Source: an uncultured Gammaproteobacteria bacterium (GTDB lineage: Bacteria; Patescibacteriota; Patescibacteriia; Patescibacteriales; GWE2-39-37). From it: a DNA stretch of 64,000 nt. Shown here in pieces: positions 34,158 to 61,226 of this stretch. The stretch is taken from contig CAYUCS010000003.1 in NCBI GenBank assembly GCA_964443495.1, forward strand, positions 132,031 through 196,030, given 5' to 3'. Position numbers and translations under genes: made by a program. Under the pieces are notes generated by a model that worked only from the letters and a program-made list of their open reading frames with translations, did no database searches and was not told the origin of the DNA. Every line of letters begins with the position of its first letter. Positions within the stretch are counted from its first letter, which is position 1.

Positions 34158-34475
34158 ATGATTAAATCTATATGCTGCTCTAATAAAGAGCTCTTAAAGA
34201 AATATGGCGATATGGCTAAGTTTTTACGCGTAATTGGCGAAGACAATAGGTTAAAAATTATTTGCATCTTGAAGGATGGAGAGCGGTGTGTTTGTGAGAT
34301 TGTTGATAGTTTGGATTTGTCACAAACTTTAATTTCTAATCACTTGAAAGCCTTGCGCGATCTAGGGCTAATCGAAAGCCGACAAGAGTGGAAAAAGGTC
34401 TATTATTCAATCAATAAAAAAACATTTAAAAAATATAATTCATTATTAACTAATTTTTTAAAAAACTATGAGTAA
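34158..34475 (+). CDS. ArsR/SmtB-family metal(loid)-responsive repressor
   Basis: HTH LSQTLISNHLKALRDLGLI. The CVC motif (ERCVCEIV) lies at the usual metal(loid)-binding position. Confidence 0.88.
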   Translation: MIKSICCSNKELLKKYGDMAKFLRVIGEDNRLKIICILKDGERCVCEIVDSLDLSQTLISNHLKALRDLGLIESRQEWKKVYYSINKKTFKKYNSLLTNFLKNYE

Positions 34476-34773
34476 TAAAATTGAGAATATTCAAGTTTTA
34501 GGCACCGGTTGCCCAACTTGCAAGAAATTATTTGAAACCACCAAGCAGGTTGTTTCGGAGTTAGGCATCAAGATTGAAGTTGAATATATCAATGACCTTG
34601 GAAAGATAATGGCTATGGGCGTGATGTCTAGTCCGGTACTAGTGATTAATAATCAAGCGGTCGTCGCCGGACAATCTCCGAGTGCTGATAAAATTAAAGA
34701 ATTATTGACTAGCGAGCAATGGTCTGCACCAAAAGAACCAGCTGGTTGCTGTTCTTGCGGCGGCAAGTGTTAA
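34468..34773 (+). CDS. Thioredoxin-fold redox-active disulfide protein (TM0996/MTH895-like) with Cys-rich tail
   Basis: GTGCPTCKKL CxxC motif and MSSPVLVINN. C-terminal CCSCGGKC. Overlaps the ArsR stop by 8 nt. Confidence 0.85.
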   Translation: MSNKIENIQVLGTGCPTCKKLFETTKQVVSELGIKIEVEYINDLGKIMAMGVMSSPVLVINNQAVVAGQSPSADKIKELLTSEQWSAPKEPAGCCSCGGKC

Positions 34774-34777
34774 TTTT

Positions 34778-35806
34778 ATGAGCATATTTTACCCTATACA
34801 ACTATTCGCCAATTGGCTGTCGTTTGATATTTTCGGATTAACTCCGAAAACATTGGCAGGCGAGGCAGTTAATTTTTTTGTTTTTGATACGATCAAAGTC
34901 TTTTTGCTTTTAGCAGTTATTATCTACATTGTCTCATTTATCCGCACCTATTTGCCACCCGAAAAAATCAGAGGCATTTTGTCGCATAAGAATAAATATT
35001 TCGGTCATGTTTTGGCGAGTCTGTTTGGCATTATAACGCCATTTTGCTCTTGCAGTGCTGTGCCATTATTTTTGGGTTTTGTTGAGGCGGGCGTACCGTT
35101 GGGTGTGACATTCTCCTTTTTGGTATCCTCGCCGATGATTAATGAGGTAGCCTTGGTGTTATTGCTTGGCATGTTCGGTTGGAAGATTGCCTTGATTTAC
35201 GTGGCTAGCGGTTTGATGATTGCTATTTTATCAGGACTCGCAATTGGCTTTTTTAATGTTGAACATTTGTTAGCTGATTTTATCAACAAGAATCGAGCCA
35301 AGCAAAATGCGATGCCATTAATGAAAATGACCACAAAGGACAGACAAGAATATGCTTGGAATTATGTTAAAGATATTATTAAAAAGGTTTGGCCATATAT
35401 CATAATTGGTATCGGCTTAGGTGCATGGATACACGGTTATGTGCCGACAGATTTTTTGGCCAAATATGCCGGGGCAGATAAATGGTACGCAGTGCCCCTA
35501 GCAACGTTGATCGGTATTCCGCTATACTCAAATGCCGCCGGCGTAATCCCATTGGTTAGCGCTTTGACCGAGAAAGGTGTAAGCATGGGGACAACCATGG
35601 CTTTTATGATGGCTGTGACGGCATTGTCGTTGCCCGAGTTCATGATTTTAAAGAAAGTCATGAAGACACGTTTAATCGTCATCTTTGCCGGTACGGTTGG
35701 TATAGGCATTATTATTACAGGCTATATGTTTAATTACATTATAGGCAATAATCACGGCAAGGTTCAGGCTATTGCTAATCAGGCAAGCGTAGAGCTAGAG
35801 AATTAA
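34778..35806 (+). CDS. Permease of the DUF318/YraQ (ArsP-like) family
   Basis: Polytopic protein. FGIITPFCSCSAVPLF is the family-typical CSC motif. Confidence 0.8.
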   Translation: MSIFYPIQLFANWLSFDIFGLTPKTLAGEAVNFFVFDTIKVFLLLAVIIYIVSFIRTYLPPEKIRGILSHKNKYFGHVLASLFGIITPFCSCSAVPLFLGFVEAGVPLGVTFSFLVSSPMINEVALVLLLGMFGWKIALIYVASGLMIAILSGLAIGFFNVEHLLADFINKNRAKQNAMPLMKMTTKDRQEYAWNYVKDIIKKVWPYIIIGIGLGAWIHGYVPTDFLAKYAGADKWYAVPLATLIGIPLYSNAAGVIPLVSALTEKGVSMGTTMAFMMAVTALSLPEFMILKKVMKTRLIVIFAGTVGIGIIITGYMFNYIIGNNHGKVQAIANQASVELEN

Positions 35807-35821
35807 TTATTAATAATTTCC

Positions 35822-36316
35822 ATGCTTATGAATAAATCATTAATATTATTATTGCTTATTTCAGTTAGTTTAACTTTAACTGGCTGTGGCAAGCAAGGCG
35901 TTGCAACGGATCAACAAGTTAAACCAGCAATCGCAAAAAAAAGAAGTGCGGACTATAGTCAAATGTCATCGCGGGAGAATGTGGCTGATAAGGTTCAGGT
36001 TTTTTTATTCCACCCCACTCAACGCTGTTCAACTTGTATAGCCATTGGAAAATTGGCGGGAGAAACGGTTAATGAAAGATTTCAAGCGGAACTCAAGTCG
36101 GGTAAAATTGAATTTAGAGAAGTTAATATTGATTTACCTGAGAATAAGGCATTGGCCACAAAATTCCAAGCGAGCGGATCAGCTTTATATCTGAATGCAA
36201 TCAGTGGTGACACTGATCGGATTGAGCAAGATGCCAAGGTTTGGCGCTTAACCCAAGATCCAGTCGTTTTTAAGGAATACCTTGAGGGCAGAATCAATAT
36301 CTTGCTTGGCAAATAA
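35822..36316 (+). CDS. Lipoprotein with thioredoxin-like CxxC region
   Basis: Lipobox LTLTGC. HPTQRCSTCIAIG. It resembles the small proteins usually paired with CcdA-like transporters in arsenical/redox clusters (from memory; name not certain). Confidence 0.6.
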   Translation: MLMNKSLILLLLISVSLTLTGCGKQGVATDQQVKPAIAKKRSADYSQMSSRENVADKVQVFLFHPTQRCSTCIAIGKLAGETVNERFQAELKSGKIEFREVNIDLPENKALATKFQASGSALYLNAISGDTDRIEQDAKVWRLTQDPVVFKEYLEGRINILLGK

Positions 36317-36318
36317 AT

Positions 36319-37047
36319 ATGGAATTAATTAACGCCCTTATTGATAATTACAACATTCCGATTTTATCAGCTTTTTTGCTGGGCGTTTTAACTTCGGTCA
36401 GTCCTTGTCCATTAGCCACCAATATCACAGCCGTTGCCTATATCTCTAAAGAGATTAAATCAGCAAAGAATACCTTATTAAACGGACTAGCCTATACGGT
36501 CGGGCGTGGCATTTCTTATGCAGTATTGGCTATGCTGATATATTTCGGCTTATCGTCATTTAAAATCTCAAGCATTTTTCAGGGTTGGGGTGATAAGGTG
36601 CTAGGAATCGTTTTGATTTTAATTGGCTTGGTTATGTTCGATGTGATCAGAATAAACATCGGAGCAAATAATGAAAGACTAGAAAAAATCAAAAGCTGGC
36701 TAGCTCAAAAGGGTTATATCGGGTCATTGTTATTAGGCGTGATTTTTTCGTTGGCTTTTTGTCCATACAGCGGAGTTTTATTTTTTGGCGTACTTGTGCC
36801 GTTGGTGGTGAAGTCTGCCGAGGGATTGCTGTTGCCAATCGTTTTCGCAATTGGTACTGGTTTGCCGGTGATTATATTTTCTTTTCTTTTGGCATTCAGT
36901 GTTGGTAAAGTTGGTAAAATGTTCGGTGCTATTCAGAAATTTGAGAAAGTCATGAGGTACGGCATTGCCTCTATTTTTATTATATCGGGTGTGTATTATT
37001 TGCAATTTTTATTTAAATATTTAGCACGTATTTGGATTGTAGATTAA
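36319..37047 (+). CDS. CcdA/DsbD-like thiol-disulfide transmembrane protein
   Basis: Six TM segments. Conserved Cys in TSVSPCPLA and AFCPYSG, matching the two half-channel Cys of the CcdA family. Confidence 0.8.
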   Translation: MELINALIDNYNIPILSAFLLGVLTSVSPCPLATNITAVAYISKEIKSAKNTLLNGLAYTVGRGISYAVLAMLIYFGLSSFKISSIFQGWGDKVLGIVLILIGLVMFDVIRINIGANNERLEKIKSWLAQKGYIGSLLLGVIFSLAFCPYSGVLFFGVLVPLVVKSAEGLLLPIVFAIGTGLPVIIFSFLLAFSVGKVGKMFGAIQKFEKVMRYGIASIFIISGVYYLQFLFKYLARIWIVD

Positions 37048-37256: not shown

Positions 37257-37321
37257 AGTACCCCCGGCAGCCTGCCTGCCGGCAGGCAGGGAGTCGAAGG
37301 GGCGGAAGCCCCACGCCGAAC
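37257..37321 (-). repeat. Displaced copy of the tRNA-Arg 3' end plus conserved GC hairpin (att-like remnant)
   Basis: Minus strand: CGGCGT-GGGGCTTCCGCCCC-TTCGACTC-[20-nt perfect palindrome]-CTGCCGGGGGTACT. The flanks are identical to 37387-37408 inside tRNA-Arg. Confidence 0.7.
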
Positions 37322-37388
37322 AGTAAATTCTTGACCAAGCCAGGAATAATAATATTTAACCCCAGAAGAATCTGGGCTTAAATATTAG

Positions 37389-37460
37389 TACCCCCGGCAG
37401 GAGTCGAACCTACGTAACCAGCTTAGAAGGCTGGTGTTCTATCCGTTGAACTACGGGGGC
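37389..37460 (-). tRNA. tRNA-Arg (TCT)
   Basis: GCCCCCG-TA-GTTC-AACGGATA-GAAC-A-CCAGC-CTTCTAA-GCTGG-TTAC-GTAGG-TTCGACT-CCTGC-CGGGGGT-A. 72 nt, no CCA encoded. Confidence 0.88.
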
Positions 37461-46946: not shown

Positions 46947-46965
46947 GAGGGTTCGAAATATAAAA

Positions 46966-46995
46966 ATATCCCCAGAGAATGGGGATATTTTTTTG
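46966..46995 (+). terminator. Rho-independent terminator of tig
   Basis: ATATCCCC-AGAGAAT-GGGGATAT followed by TTTTTTT. Confidence 0.85.
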
Positions 46996-47013
46996 TTTGT
47001 GCAGTTTCGCCTC

Positions 47014-47140
47014 GCCATTCCGCCGCCGCGGAATGGCTCGTTGTCCTGGGCAGCGATGAATGCTGGCCGCATTCATCGGCGTTCACTGCGAACCTGCTCT
47101 GCTGAGCAGGTTCTTGCTCACTGCTGCCCGTTCGAGTCCC
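47014..47140 (+). other. Noncoding cluster of perfect GC-rich hairpins ending in a T-loop-like GTTCGAGTCCC
   Basis: GCCATTCCGC/GCGGAATGGC (47014-47037). Closing stem GGGCAGC (47048) / GCTGCCC (47123) encloses GATGAATGC/GCATTCATC and GAACCTGCTC/GAGCAGGTTC. Then GTTCGAGTCCC (47130-47140). Confidence 0.5.
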
Positions 47141-47150
47141 CTTTCATGAT

Positions 47151-47198
47151 ACAAGCAATATAAAACACCCCTAATTAGGAGTGTTTTATATTGCTTGT
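47151..47198. repeat. 48-nt near-perfect palindrome
   Basis: ACAAGCAATATAAAACAC ... GTGTTTTATATTGCTTGT with centre CCCTAATTAGGA (one mismatch). The outer arms extend to GTTCGAGTCCC (47130) / GGGACTCGAAC (47208). Confidence 0.8.
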
Positions 47199-47240
47199 GC
47201 CGCGGGAGGGACTCGAACGGGGCGGAAGCCCCACGCCGTC
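47195..47240 (-). repeat. Displaced copy of the tRNA-Leu(TAA) 3' end plus conserved GC hairpin (att-like remnant)
   Basis: 47195-47218 is identical (24 nt) to 47374-47397 in the tRNA. It is followed on the T-loop side by GGGGCGGAAGCCCC-ACGCCG (47219-47238). Confidence 0.75.
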
Positions 47241-47376
47241 ATCTAGAGGGTTTCGTTTGTTTTTTAGTAAGAGCAAATAATTTGTCATTACTTAATTAAC
47301 CTCCTTCATCTAAGGTTTCTCGTACTTCCGACAACGCAAATAAAAAAGCCCCAGGTTACTGGAACTTTTTTATTTG

Positions 47377-47459
47377 TGCCGCGGGAGGGACTCGAACCCT
47401 CACGAGATTGCTCTCAGCAGATTTTAAGTCTGCCGCGTATACCATTCCGCCACCACGGC
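47377..47459 (-). tRNA. tRNA-Leu (TAA), long variable arm
   Basis: GCCGTGG...GCAGA-CTTAAAA-TCTGC-variable arm-GAGGG-TTCGAGT-CCCTC-CCGCGGC-A. No CCA encoded. It lies 6 nt after the tmRNA 3' end. Confidence 0.85.
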
Positions 47460-47465
47460 CGGATG

Positions 47466-47843
47466 TGGAGATGAGGAGAGTTGAACTCCTGTCTAATAAA
47501 GTTTTTAAAAACAGTTTACAAGCCGTAGCCGCTTTGTTTGTCTGACTGCAATCATCAAAAGTGGCAAAAGCGATTGCAGCGATCCCTAAAGTTTCGGACG
47601 AGCGGCCAGGGCCTCCGCTTGCCTATCTCTGAAAGATAACACCCGGATCGCGAGACCAGAGACTACCCGCGGCGGATGGTTGCGGCGATTTAAGCGGCAA
47701 CAGGTGCAAAGGCAGGTACCTTCCAGGTAAAGCCTTTGGCTAAAGTGTTTTTGGCACTTATGAATTTGAATCGGATTAAGGTGGCGATCCTGCACCGGCT
47801 TGAGTGTTTTCAAAGTTCTTTACTATCGATGCCCGTCATCCCC
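47466..47843 (-). ncRNA. ssrA: tmRNA (SsrA)
   Basis: 5' GGGGATGACGGGCATCGATAG. 3' AGGAG-TTCAACT-CTCCT-CATCTCC-A with a G3:U70 pair. Tag frame GCC AAA AAC ... GTT GCC GCT TAA gives AKNTLAKGFTWKVPAFAPVAA. Directly downstream of smpB. Confidence 0.88.
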
Positions 47844-60881: not shown

Positions 60882-60965
60882 GCCGAGGTGGTGAAATTGG
60901 TATACACGCATGCTTCAGGTGCATGTGGGGGCAACCCCGTGGAGGTTCAAGTCCTCTTCTCGGCA
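60882..60965 (+). tRNA. tRNA-Leu (CAG), long variable arm
   Basis: GCCGAGG...CATGC-TTCAGGT-GCATG-variable arm GGGGGCAACCCC-GGAGG-TTCAAGT-CCTCT-TCTCGGC-A. No CCA encoded. Confidence 0.85.
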
Positions 60966-61038
60966 CAAGATAAATTAATCCCTTTAGGGATTAATTGAGC
61001 TTGAGTTGAGGAAGTGGTAAAGAACTTCCATATTCAAC

Positions 61039-61075
61039 GGGGCTTCCGCCCCTTCAAGTCCTCTTCTCGGCACAA
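61039..61075 (+). repeat. Displaced copy of the tRNA-Leu(CAG) 3' end preceded by the conserved GC hairpin (att-like remnant)
   Basis: GGGGCTTCCGCCCC (61039-61052) is followed by TTCAAGTCCTCTTCTCGGCACAA (61053-61075), identical to 60946-60968. Confidence 0.75.
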
Positions 61076-61226
61076 TCAGATTTCAATAAGAAATCTCCCG
61101 TTAAATTAATAAAGGAGTACGCAAGGACTCTTGGTCGGCGCATTTAGCGTCGCTTTGAACTCTCGCGTTGGCTTTTGCCAATGCATCTTGTCCGGCCGTT
61201 GCGCCGGACAGCTACTCATCAAATTT

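Follow-up and report, generated by a model that had tools for sequence, protein, structure and literature searches.

The tRNA-Leu(CAG) locus

The window analyzed here, a stretch of 64,000 nucleotides, contains an intact tRNA-Leu(CAG) gene whose neighbors are the genes for SBP, secG, rplT, and rnj. The bounds of the tRNA were called as 60882-60966 by ARAGORN and as 60882-60965 by Rfam. The segment from T54 to A73, together with the trailer CAA, makes up the 23-mer TTCAAGTCCTCTTCTCGGCACAA, of which the window holds two exact copies separated by 84 nt (Table 1). No third copy was found in the window at up to 3 mismatches, and shuffled sequences gave 0.

The preliminary description of this DNA had reported the 23-nt repeat and, directly before its second copy, the hairpin GGGGCTTCCGCCCC (HP); we confirmed the positions of both and their direct abutment. 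Its statement that HP takes the place of the 5' strand of the T stem, making a T-arm impossible, was borne out as well, but it had overlooked a pairing partner, segment X, whose parts at this locus are GCTTGAG, TGAGG, a loop with an AGAAC end, and a T3'-like CTTCC. Measured from T54 of the tRNA to the end of HP, the cassette is 107 bp long. When positions 60998-61073 were folded, the result was HP together with an interrupted rod of 11 bp (-26.5 kcal/mol, z -2.6). The minimum-energy structure of the isolated unit folds X on itself, and the rod needs one extra flanking base.

HP occurs at exactly three sites in the 64 kb, with no near-variants at up to 2 mismatches, and the chance expectation for the form GGGGC-N4-GCCCC is 0.03 in the window. 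Each of the three is directly followed by a copy, from T54 to A73, of the tRNA just upstream; at the tRNA-Arg(TCT) and tRNA-Leu(TAA) loci, HP lies 73 to 144 nt from that tRNA, on the same strand. We thus confirmed the earlier count of this signature at three of the five tRNA genes of the window (~60%), namely Arg(TCT), Leu(TAA), and Leu(CAG); it is absent from tRNA-His, tRNA-Gly, and tmRNA in the window. A reading of all five tRNA genes also confirmed that none encodes CCA (0/5). The perfect palindrome within the second tRNA-Arg copy had not featured in the preliminary description. A small open reading frame through HP in the tRNA-Leu(TAA) cassette (GGAGG-N11-ATG, 35 codons) was rejected, as its ortholog in L089 is truncated.

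Table 1. Features of the three cassettes found in the 64,000-nucleotide window
Feature	Positions	Strand	Remarks
tRNA-Leu(CAG), intact	60882-60965	+	ARAGORN; Rfam tRNA, 49.6 bits; A73 at 60965, then CAA; CCA not encoded
Direct repeat copy 1 (T54 to A73 + CAA)	60946-60968	+	Exact 23-mer, 0 expected by chance
Hairpin 1, AATTAATCCC / TTTA / GGGATTAATT	60973-60996	.	Missing from the L082 empty site
Segment X, inverted degenerate copy of acceptor 3' strand + T-arm	60999-61029	+	Complementarity search; pairs with 61060-61071 of copy 2
Linker ATATTCAAC, "AAC" linker type	61030-61038	+	
HP, GGGGC-TTCC-GCCCC	61039-61052	+	Near-invariant; adjoins T54 of the copy
Direct repeat copy 2 (T54 to A73 + CAA)	61053-61075	+	Native downstream flank (rnj leader) still follows
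Second cassette, short class, behind tRNA-Arg(TCT) (37389-37460)	37257-37460	-	
tRNA-Arg(TCT) cassette, repeat copy 1	37387-37408	-	
tRNA-Arg(TCT) cassette, hairpin	37351-37386	-	
tRNA-Arg(TCT) cassette, X	37321-37350	-	
tRNA-Arg(TCT) cassette, linker	37313-37320	-	
tRNA-Arg(TCT) cassette, HP	37299-37312	-	
tRNA-Arg(TCT) cassette, copy 2	37257-37298	-	Split by a 20-nt perfect palindrome at 37271-37290
Third cassette, long class (unit/locus B), behind tRNA-Leu(TAA) (47377-47459)	47195-47459	-	
tRNA-Leu(TAA) cassette, repeat copy 1	47374-47397	-	
tRNA-Leu(TAA) cassette, hairpin	47337-47376	-	
tRNA-Leu(TAA) cassette, X	47310-47336	-	
tRNA-Leu(TAA) cassette, AT-rich insert + linker	47233-47309	-	
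tRNA-Leu(TAA) cassette, HP	47219-47232	-	
tRNA-Leu(TAA) cassette, copy 2	47195-47218	-	One extra G before T54

A family of cassettes behind tRNA and tmRNA genes

The duplicated tRNA-Leu end belongs to a family of 107- or 180-base cassettes that is apparently undescribed; we found no description of such a cassette in the literature. A scan of public genomes for HP joined to a T-loop returned ~69 loci in 44 Patescibacteria assemblies, the ultra-small hosts belonging to Ca. Falkowbacteria and related Parcubacteria. Since this census of HP-bearing units shows the junction after a wide variety of tRNAs, in 44 assemblies or more, random duplication is excluded. The tRNAs concerned cover at least 16 amino-acid specificities, to which tmRNA is added, and one 1.7-Mb genome holds at least 12 HP sites. 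Taken together, 81 public loci and the window contain 89 HP sites, and in 56 of these the tRNA or tmRNA upstream on the same strand has its 3' end copied in the 20 nt that follow HP (at most 3 mismatches, mostly 0).

The order of elements is constant: tRNA 3' end, a near-perfect hairpin of ~17 bp, X, linker, HP, and the direct T54-A73 copy. Direct repeats of T54-A73 (+C) of the tRNA flank the cassette on both sides. An equivalent of hairpin 1 was present in all 48 units (48/48), with a median of 17 pairs, 95% of them Watson-Crick. The distance from tRNA end to HP falls into two classes, 72 to 85 nt or 130 to 152 nt, with one outlier at 106, and unit length from X to A73 is likewise discrete (65 to 72 nt or 136 to 148 nt). 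Loci carry one to two units, and six tandem arrays have a period of 159 to 182 nt. In the linker, G stands at -5 in 37/48 units, a purine at -2 in 44/48, and a pyrimidine at -1 in 43/48, and linkers group by tRNA type across genomes, with GCGTGTCGG(C/A)GT for Pro and TTTTTGGTGGT for Lys(TTT). The long-class units contain the motifs YTGATTAT and AATGATGGYGT, for which a box C/D-like or K-turn resemblance was considered. An internal sigma-70 promoter in the long-class insert was rejected as inconsistent between units.

The HP stem shows no compensatory changes, the HP/T54 junction is exact in nearly all copies, and the only HP variant in 692 kb of sequence examined is GGGGCTTTCGCCCC in L089/L090, a loop variant in the orthologue of the tRNA-Leu(TAA) cassette; this invariance is inflated by ascertainment, because the public-genome scan required the exact 14-mer. 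No HP was found outside a tRNA context in the same 692 kb.

A constant hairpin followed by ~20 nt identical to a tRNA gene recalls the hairpin-plus-guide arrangement of a Cas12-type crRNA or a homing guide, and the cassette could in principle be a guide-RNA-like module that directs an RNA-guided nuclease or transposon to tRNA genes. We regard this as very improbable. There are no cas, tnpB, or transposon genes near the window loci, and the supposed guide is sequestered by X. Each tRNA has one module at its own target, unlike a homing-guide arrangement, and in place of a CRISPR array of three or more spaced repeats with cas genes there are one to two units whose "spacer" is the neighboring gene. 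When all 4227 Rfam families were searched at gathering threshold, only tRNA and tmRNA passed and the cassette was unmatched. A permissive E-value search gave subthreshold CRISPR-DR and miRNA matches (E 0.6-2) on hairpin 1; the CRISPR-repeat matches are at chance level, not on HP, and reach 19 bits against a gathering threshold of 37.

Predicted pairing of segment X with the downstream copy

X exists only where HP exists. Asymmetric T-loops are matched in X by their exact reverse complement (AGTTGAA in L021, ATTTGAA in L036 and L053, and 14/14 positions in L024), and because they match only in this orientation, we rejected the possibility that X is a forward T-arm copy, that is, a target-site duplication of T-loop and T3'. 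X as a general feature of tRNA terminators was also rejected: the X score was 9.4 of 12 for tRNAs with units and 7.2 for tRNAs without HP, the latter at the background of 7.65.

On the tRNA-sense strand, X and the copy form a rod of 12 bp that resembles acceptor and T stems. Mean X:copy pairing was 9.27/12 for cognate against 7.49/12 for noncognate combinations, and 10 or more positions were paired in 53% and 2.2% of these, respectively. In a fixed-register 51-column core alignment of 47 units, 80% of rod cells are paired, ten rod pairs change on both sides, and the share of all scored cells that pair is 86% in the true register compared to 47 to 57% with slid partners. Of 20 short units, 18 self-fold into rod plus HP. 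The whole-structure covariation score was 0.527 versus 0.12 to 0.15 for slid controls, although X/copy covariation is partly inherited from the inverted duplication and only the transition asymmetry described below argues for selection.

Per site, substitutions in X that keep a G·U pair (C>T, 65/138; A>G, 19/88) outnumber those that break a pair (G>A, 28/288; T>C, 1/50) about fivefold, with p about 1e-16. The asymmetry remains (p = 1e-16) if G·U is given no reward in choosing the register, and Watson-Crick-only rescoring, as well as rewarding A·C like G·U, led us to reject an artifact of register choice. In an X-like segment that has no partner copy (window positions ~47120-47150), G>A and C>T are alike. 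The excess of G·U-keeping changes points to selection on a folded RNA of the tRNA-sense strand, as judged from sequence comparison, and with as many as 5 G·U among its 12 pairs the rod suits an RNA better than a DNA hairpin. Alternatively, a strand-biased mutation process may be the source of the asymmetry.

These results bear on the earlier proposal that the hairpin plus the acceptor 3' strand is itself a functional RNA. An RNA of the tRNA strand is supported by the strand-specific G·U signature, but the proposed unit was too small: as X supplies the partner for the T-stem 3' and acceptor 3' strands of the copy, the functional unit would be X-linker-HP-copy.

X could equally well pair with the tRNA itself. 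In a host regulatory switch of this kind, X would alternate between the 3' half of the tRNA (an anti-tRNA duplex of up to ~40 bp and possible RNase III substrate) and the distal copy, tuning tRNA yield or quality control. The minimum-energy fold of the full read-through transcript pairs X with the 3' half of the upstream tRNA across hairpin 1 (-86 kcal/mol, z -6.6), the palindrome runs unbroken from the loop of hairpin 1 via C74-A76 and N73 to the acceptor and T-arm, 31/48 units have a pair between N73 and the base opposite it, and RNase III is encoded in a relative. Yet wherever the copy and the upstream tRNA differ, so that the two can be told apart, X pairs with the variant of the copy (6/6). 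The switch also leaves the conserved HP unexplained, and the cassette is dispensable in close relatives. We consider such a switch improbable.

Gain and loss of cassettes in relatives

We compared the tRNA-Leu(CAG) locus across relatives, as the preliminary description had suggested. Six relatives, with RNase J 94 to 73% identical, keep the order SBP - tRNA-Leu(CAG) - rnj with the same tRNA, and all six lack the cassette. An exact empty site was found in the relative that, of those sampled at this locus, is the closest: in L082, tRNA-Leu(CAG) is joined directly to CAATCAGATTTCAGTAAGAAATCTCC, the sequence found 3' of copy 2 in the window. The cassette was therefore gained or lost as a unit, and since hairpin 1 is missing from the empty site as well, hairpin 1 arrived with it. 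At locus B, a relative whose SmpB is 99% identical has the cassette, and one at 87% does not. The cassette is dispensable, and its patchy distribution argues against an important host function.

Integrase att cores classically occupy the very stretch covered by the direct repeat, which begins in the T-loop and reaches the 3' end of the tRNA. Integrase att duplications left by prophages, ICEs, and islands share with the cassette this repeat (23 nt exact here, with 56 analogous cases), an intact gene on one side and a 3' fragment on the native flank on the other, presence/absence polymorphism, and tandem arrays. Nevertheless, the notion of an ordinary scar, in which attL and attR remain after decay of a tRNA-targeting prophage or island, is effectively refuted. 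The insert is only 84 or ~160 nt long and gene-free, and at the tRNA-Leu(CAG) locus no integrase, cargo, or remnant lies by the repeats; the core genes SBP, secG, rplT, and rnj are syntenic in the six relatives. A genomic island downstream of the copy was likewise rejected, the next gene being that for RNase J with synteny kept across the six. Instead of a junction specific to one target tRNA, the identical 14-nt hairpin adjoins copies from over 16 tRNA families and from tmRNA, spanning at least 16 specificities. The discrete size classes are unlike random deletion remnants, and the extra inverted copy is under a strand-specific pairing constraint.

Another candidate is a nonautonomous mobile or integrative mini-element. 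Here HP and the T-loop would form the site at which a trans-acting recombinase binds and crosses over, and an element bringing its own tRNA 3' end and hairpin would insert between G53 and T54, its folded single strand mimicking the target as in integron attC sites and the folded attP of CTX phage. Consistent with this are the presence/absence polymorphism with an exact empty site, the tandem arrays, the native 3' end kept on the native flank as in integrative elements, and the conservation of HP in sequence, without compensatory stem changes and with an exact HP/T54 junction in nearly all copies. In addition, the gene of the tmRNA - Leu(TAA) - Gly(GCC) cluster that a cassette follows differs from genome to genome. 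Against it, the surroundings of all three window loci are free of integrase, transposase, and reverse transcriptase genes, and the HP/T-loop junction was not found in IMG/VR viral contigs. A rod in which as many as 5 of 12 positions are G·T would make a poor DNA duplex, and interiors within one genome are unrelated except for HP, so that no recent burst has occurred. Finally, every cassette needs a tRNA-specific 3' end and X, which conservative site-specific recombination cannot make. On balance we find this explanation unlikely.

It is also conceivable, though distinctly unlikely in our estimate, that the cassette is a protein-less selfish hitch-hiker spread by natural transformation and homologous recombination, with the tRNA gene as left arm and the distal T54-A73 copy as right arm, the rod only keeping the insertion harmless. 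The copy is identical to the tRNA in most units even though tRNA sequence varies between genomes, and the grouping of linkers by tRNA type across genomes would also fit. None of the relatives sampled has the tRNA-Leu(CAG) cassette, but the X of this cassette already departs widely from a perfect inverted copy, and the cassette must therefore be imported or old rather than made in place. However, a right homology arm of just 20 to 23 nt is short, HP conservation and the rise of new tRNA specificities are left unexplained, and metagenomes, searched as a test of horizontal spread, yielded no other copy of this cassette; the one related junction that matched stemmed from a tRNA-Leu(GAG) cassette located elsewhere.

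Comparison with other known systems

Several tRNA-like structures (MALAT1 mascRNA, the mitochondrial punctuation model, YrlA, viral 3' TLS, and minihelices) have in common with the cassette a 12-bp acceptor/T-stem helix, authentic T-loop nucleotides, and a discriminator within a longer transcript, an embedding in which cleavage would define the RNA ends. The helix of ~12 bp with a single-stranded discriminator is found in the cassettes (80% of cells pair; 18/20 short units). In contrast to those structures, the T-loop is opened at 53/54 by an insertion of 35 or 105 nt that includes HP, and there is no real T-arm, D-arm, or anticodon arm. Rather than a closed T-arm hairpin, HP and a 20- to 90-nt insert lie between the T5'-like strand and T54. 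Each copy also mimics its own adjacent tRNA.

REP, BIME, and REPIN elements and attC sites are, like the cassettes, short noncoding sequences just after genes that are defined by fold and length, with strand-specific selection and variable central loops that give length classes. The cassettes differ in being found only at tRNA and tmRNA 3' ends, in having arms from the neighboring gene and not from a family consensus, and in one near-invariant 14-nt hairpin; no RAYT or IntI partner is known. A dispersed shared consensus with terminal inverted repeats, as in MITE or REP families, is not seen, with no HP off the tRNA context in 692 kb. The cassette junction G/TTCRA (the slash marks the junction) resembles attC G/TTRRRY but has C at position 4, and some linkers end in AAC, compared with the RYYYAAC core of attC; no integrase was seen in the window.

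Split, permuted, and intron-containing tRNAs (Nanoarchaeum, Caldivirga, Cyanidioschyzon, and archaeal introns at 53/54) show an interruption at exactly 53/54 and a structured insert, beyond which lies a second 3' part able in principle to complete the 5' part. Unlike these, the cassette accompanies an intact gene, at our locus a complete tRNA-Leu(CAG) upstream (49.6 bits), and has no bulge-helix-bulge or group I core. Group I tRNA introns of Patescibacteria lie at 35/36 in the anticodon loop (PMC13011429) and not at 53/54, and we rejected a relation to them.

A possible tRNA-minihelix mimic

The explanation we prefer, and hold tentatively as falling somewhat short of an even prospect, is that the cassette is a lineage-specific element 3' of tRNA and tmRNA genes that is transcribed as a tRNA-minihelix mimic and is gained and lost via its repeats. 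The cassette would be transcribed with the tRNA, on the tRNA strand. In L016, L030, and L037, the next tRNA begins 6 to 14 nt after A73 of the copy, a gap that leaves no room for a promoter; judging from this arrangement, cassettes that close to the next tRNA of an operon are probably transcribed. Alternatively, hairpin 1 resembles an intrinsic terminator in many units and could exclude X and the copy from the tRNA transcript.

In the RNA, X would pair with the distal copy, as the pairing statistics show, in a 12-bp helix like an acceptor stem stacked on a T stem. The authentic T-loop nucleotides would remain covalently continuous with the discriminator and trailer, and HP would stack beside T54, the product being a tRNA minihelix mimic without the remaining tRNA body. 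The displaced A73/C74 junction might then be treated like a genuine tRNA 3' end by end-processing enzymes. RNase Z is the obvious candidate, as these tRNAs have no encoded CCA, and RNase P or the CCA-adding enzyme may also act. With such mimicry, the cassette would leave processing unaffected, both of the tRNA and of the transcript that follows, which at our locus is the rnj leader. The conservation of HP extends beyond structure to sequence, and HP is probably a protein recognition site. In this reading, whole cassettes are gained or lost by recombination between the 20- to 23-nt direct repeats, as the exact empty site shows.

The putative decoy for processing or CCA addition put forward in the preliminary description survives as one version of the tRNA-mimic reading only. 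A role in processing leaves unexplained the sequence conservation of HP, the two size classes, and the origin of cassettes for more than 16 tRNA families. We also entertain, as a rather unlikely possibility, a novel class of tRNA-parasitic or tRNA-associated element in bacteria of the candidate phyla radiation: a protein-less cassette that copies the 3' arm of its host tRNA, inverted and direct, around a constant, putatively protein-binding hairpin, expresses a bespoke tRNA-minihelix mimic, and moves between tRNA loci and genomes via the T-loop/3'-end repeat by means of an HP-recognizing enzyme or recombination alone.

Implications

The cassettes may benefit the host or may hitch-hike selfishly on its tRNA genes. 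Annotation pipelines will miscall their tRNA 3' fragments as pseudogenes or att sites. The cassettes bear on the processing of tRNA operons where RNase sets are reduced, and for the constant hairpin one would expect a protein partner, within reach of phylogenetic profiling. Gain and loss polymorphism among close relatives offers a handle on recombination and genome plasticity in bacteria not yet grown alone. If our reading is true, a large uncultured bacterial lineage would possess a class of noncoding elements built from, and tailored to, individual tRNA genes.

Recurrence of the hairpin and the tRNA copy

The 23-mer TTCAAGTCCTCTTCTCGGCACAA occurs exactly twice in the window, where chance predicts no such repeat, and no further copy was found at up to 3 mismatches. 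The first copy is the 3' end of an intact tRNA-Leu(CAG), from T54 to the discriminator A73 plus the trailer CAA, and the second is abutted by the hairpin GGGGCTTCCGCCCC (HP). HP has three exact occurrences in the window and no near-variants; every one lies immediately 5' of a T-loop-to-3'-end copy of the same-strand upstream tRNA, namely, tRNA-Leu(CAG), tRNA-Arg(TCT), and tRNA-Leu(TAA). The preliminary description had reported the duplicated tRNA end, the hairpin directly before its second copy, and the same signature at three tRNA loci, all of which we reproduced. The signature was not found at the window's tRNA-His, tRNA-Gly, or tmRNA.

Coordinates of features in the window
Feature	Position	Strand
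Low-GC island	34158-37047	
tRNA-Arg(TCT) cassette (locus A)	37257-37460	-
Palindrome in locus A copy	37271-37290	-
Insert beside locus B	46950-47194	
tRNA-Leu(TAA) cassette (locus B)	47195-47459	-
35-codon frame in locus B	47233-47340	-
tRNA-Leu(TAA)	47376-47459	-
tmRNA	47465-47843	-
tRNA-Leu(CAG)	60882-60965	+
23-mer, first copy	60946-60968	+
HP of the tRNA-Leu(CAG) cassette	61039-61052	+
23-mer, second copy	61053-61075	+
RNase J (rnj) 5' leader	61076-61220	

The preliminary description had also proposed a motif census, and the junction proved to be widespread. A scan for HP/T-loop junctions, covering bacteria and archaea at one genome per species, gave at least 81 loci, 12 of which were GC-rich, chance-like, and without tRNA context (actinomycetes, proteobacteria, and similar genomes). 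The others, at least 69 from at least 44 assemblies (counted by accession prefix), are labeled Ca. Falkowbacteria, Parcubacteria, Patescibacteria, "bacterium," or "uncultured Gammaproteobacteria/Saccharibacteria" co-assembly bins. At least one contig binned as Gammaproteobacteria is probably mislabeled, as it encodes an RNase J 73% identical to that of the window (P0063). The window's RNase J is 100% identical to one NCBI protein and has a match at 94% identity named Ca. Falkowbacteria, the lineage to which its sequence assigns the window.

Among 89 HP sites from the scan loci listed plus the window, the next 20 nt were the 3' end of the same-strand upstream tRNA in 56 (≤3 mismatches, mostly 0). 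The tRNAs upstream of HP-linked copies cover at least 16 amino acid specificities, and at one locus (L021) the upstream gene is tmRNA. Most remaining sites were cut off by locus ends or had a copy broken by insertions, and HP was never seen without a T-loop behind it among these 89 sites. The three window cases are members of a family confined to tRNA and tmRNA 3' ends, not accidents.

Anatomy of the cassette

All 48 units measured follow one plan. The distance from the first base of segment X to A73 of the copy is 65 to 72 nt in a short class (n = 20; Leu-CAG and Arg-TCT in the window) and 136 to 148 nt in a long class (n = 28; Leu-TAA in the window). Tandem two-unit arrays occur in L029, L038, L060, L061, and L074 and across L057/L008.

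Parts of the cassette, in order
Part	Description	Occurrence or size
tRNA 3' end	T54-A73, then C74	
Hairpin 1	from C74; median 17 pairs, 95% Watson-Crick	48/48 units
Single nucleotide	faces N73	pairing possible in 31/48 units
Segment X	inverted copy of T-arm and acceptor 3' strand	
AT-rich stretch	weakly conserved	long class only, ~70 nt
Linker	loosely conserved: G at -5, purine at -2, pyrimidine at -1; typically GGYGT or GAGAC/AAC	
HP	near-invariant hairpin	14 nt
Direct copy	T54-A73 plus C, then usually native flank or another hairpin	

HP shows conservation at the sequence level and no compensatory changes in its stem, although an exact-match scan inflates its apparent invariance; the sole variant in the 692 kb examined is a loop change to GGGGCTTTCGCCCC in L089, the locus B ortholog. 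Because conservation lies in the sequence, HP looks like a candidate protein-binding site. Hairpin 1 apparently turns over in modular fashion: in the orthologous Lys-TTT cassettes of L016 and L037, X, linker, and HP are near-identical and the central hairpins are wholly unrelated, both being perfect palindromes. A long-class subfamily (e.g., L003, L014, L056, L060, L069, and L080) carries YTGAT(T/A)AT right after X and AATGATGGYGT right before HP, box D'/C'-like (K-turn-like) motifs with the AT-rich insert between them. L005 (4900-5190) is nested: a Leu(CAG)-type 3' end follows HP, and its matching 5' acceptor strand (GCCGAGG plus D-arm) lies ~190 nt upstream, on the far side of a complete tRNA-Leu(TAG) bracketed by the inverted repeats CCGCCCC/GGGGCGG. 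The arrangement may represent a tRNA gene that has been disrupted or looks split, or an artifact of long-read assembly.

T-loops that are not self-complementary reappear in X as their exact reverse complements (TTCAACT as AGTTGAA in L021; TTCAAAT as ATTTGAA in L036 and L053), and L024 keeps the reverse-complemented T-arm at 14/14 positions. The first 12 nt of X, complementary to the 3' strands of the T-stem and acceptor, keep a constant spacing to HP within each class, ~35 nt for short units and ~105 nt for long. No X-like segment was found at tRNAs lacking HP, where the best complementarity was 7.2/12 (background, 7.65) compared with 9.4/12 at tRNAs with units; X, HP, and copy are thus one package.

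Evidence for folding on the tRNA-sense strand

Pairing of X with the copy is specific: by the same search method, cognate combinations paired at 9.27/12 positions versus 7.49 for noncognate ones, and 53% versus 2.2% reached at least 10. In an ungapped alignment of 47 distinct units (51 columns), 80% of cells in the 12-pair X:copy helix (the rod) were standard pairs, and the 17-pair whole structure was 86% paired, versus 47 to 57% with partners slid by 1 to 3 columns. Ten pairs had changed on both sides, and no shuffle reached the observed covariation. Covariation is not the key argument, however, because an inverted duplication alone predicts it.

The key argument is the direction in which X has decayed from a perfect complement. 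Pairing survives as G·U after C>T (65/138 sites) and A>G (19/88), whereas G>A (28/288) and T>C (1/50) break the pair. The asymmetry persists when the register is set by Watson-Crick pairs only or when A·C is rewarded like G·U (p = 1e-16 and 0.003 to 0.02), and we take it to mark a hairpin that is read from the plus strand. The window also offers a natural control in a further X-like segment, which follows unit B and has neither HP nor a partner copy; its acceptor part (ATCATGA versus GCCGCGG) shows G>A and C>T alike. As many as five of the twelve rod pairs are G·U, which makes a hairpin acting as RNA far more plausible than one acting as DNA. The X loop is changed to GAGAA in 20/48 units, and because this would oppose T54-A58 with three Watson-Crick pairs and tandem G·A/A·G and is more frequent with G at position 57 (18/36 versus 2/12, p = 0.05), there is a weak hint that the helix extends into the T-loop.

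Single-sequence folding gave rod and HP in 18/20 short units. Unit C, the Leu(CAG) cassette, formed an interrupted 11-bp rod when folded from 60998; in the bare unit, X folded on itself slightly better. A main rival explanation is a switch that lets X pair instead with the 3' half of the tRNA itself, as it does in the minimum-energy fold predicted for the read-through transcript. Six units have a copy that departs from the tRNA upstream, and in all of them X pairs with the version in the copy rather than the one in the tRNA (6/6).

The best support for cotranscription with the tRNA, an indirect one, is position in operons. In L016, L030, and L037, the next tRNA starts 6 to 14 nt past A73 of the copy, which would place the cassette within the precursor unless it hides a promoter; consensus scans of the units found no consistent internal promoter. 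Against read-through, many hairpin 1 sequences resemble intrinsic terminators with a T-run. At locus A, a tRNA-His with its own good promoter match directly follows the cassette.

Gain, loss, and turnover

Comparing tRNA-Leu(CAG) loci across genomes, as the preliminary description had suggested, we found the order SBP, tRNA-Leu(CAG), rnj kept in six relatives (RNase J 94, 89, 86, 78, 78, and 73% identical), none with the cassette. In L082, the closest relative sampled at this locus, the tRNA directly joins CAATCAGATTTCAGTAAGAAATCTCC, which follows the second copy in the window; this is an exact empty site, with hairpin 1 missing too. The locus B cassette is present in L089/L090 (99% SmpB identity) and absent from L092 (87%). 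Between the window and L089, its flanks are 93% identical, linker and copy are conserved, and the AT-rich interior is far more diverged. The cassette is thus dispensable and turns over as a unit.

Two further main rivals of the mimic reading proposed below are that the cassette is a recombinase-driven mini-element with the HP/T54 boundary as crossover site, or a protein-less hitchhiker spread by homologous recombination. In the tmRNA-Leu(TAA)-Gly(GCC) cluster, the gene preceding the cassette differs between genomes, and linker and X sequences cluster by tRNA type across genomes. Unit C is no fresh local product, as its X is well diverged and its direct repeat perfect; no sibling was found in the metagenome collection. 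Loss by slippage between the 20- to 23-nt direct repeats should be easy, so persistence would need selection or reacquisition.

Neighboring features

The tRNA-Arg copy of locus A holds a 20-nt perfect palindrome, CCTGCCTGCCGGCAGGCAGG, identical to one in L082 (~2345-2364) within the D-loop of a tRNA-Leu(CAG) 5' pseudofragment; copies in L040, L048, and L058 have other GC-rich palindromic inserts at the same T-stem position. These may reflect a very small palindrome that is mobile or a mutation process that generates palindromes. The insert beside locus B, ~200 nt of which is missing from the near-identical L089, is flanked by GCACAA repeats and contains a perfect hairpin, three GC-rich perfect hairpins (9 to 10 bp), and an X-like inverted T-arm (GGGGACTCGAAC) whose acceptor part is full of transitions. 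It may represent a second cassette, either decayed or of a different kind. In unit B, a GGAGG-N11-ATG opens the 35-codon frame, which reads across HP and the tRNA copy; the frame is probably there by chance, the L089 ortholog being cut to 14 codons.

The tmRNA (tag AKNTLAKGFTWKVPAFAPVAA), with smpB directly upstream, is almost certainly cotranscribed with tRNA-Leu(TAA), as only 5 nt separate it from this tRNA downstream. The rnj leader, conserved in L082, L083, and L086, has several hairpins with compensatory substitutions and conserved blocks GGAGTA(C/A)GCA...TTGG and, ahead of the ATG, GCTACTCA; it is a candidate structured, perhaps autoregulatory leader, and rnj may be cotranscribed with tRNA-Leu(CAG). 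The low-GC island (35 to 41% versus about 50%) adjoins the tRNA-His 3' end. No integrase turned up among its genes, whose products are an ArsR-type regulator, a thioredoxin-like protein, a permease, a lipoprotein, and a CcdA/DsbD-like membrane protein.

Relation to known systems and possible role

The cassette shares repeat geometry with integrase att sites, fold with tRNA minihelix mimics, and population behavior with structured intergenic repeats, but a defining feature of each fails in it. For att sites this excludes a plain integrase scar; a CRISPR-like guide was also excluded. No Rfam 15 family matched, and full-text literature searches found no description of the element; the tRNA introns recently reported in Patescibacteria are group I introns at 35/36 (PMC13011429). 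Since known-family features fail and neither Rfam nor the literature gave a match, we rate the element as apparently outside known kinds, with presumed expression and a function that we infer.

We tentatively propose, as a possibility somewhat short of even, that the cassette is an RNA minihelix mimic of the adjacent tRNA. Acting as RNA, X and the copy would together restore the 12-bp stack of acceptor and T-stem, including real T-loop nucleotides, the discriminator, and the trailer, with HP stacking at T54. RNase P might act at the first X base, a G opposite C72 in 28/47 units. The mimic would keep the downstream A73/C74 junction recognizable to the tRNA 3'-end machinery, with RNase Z as candidate; this would be the simplest role because A73/C74 is identical in filled and empty alleles and the tRNAs encode no CCA. 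Insertion behind a tRNA would thus disturb neither the tRNA nor the downstream transcript.
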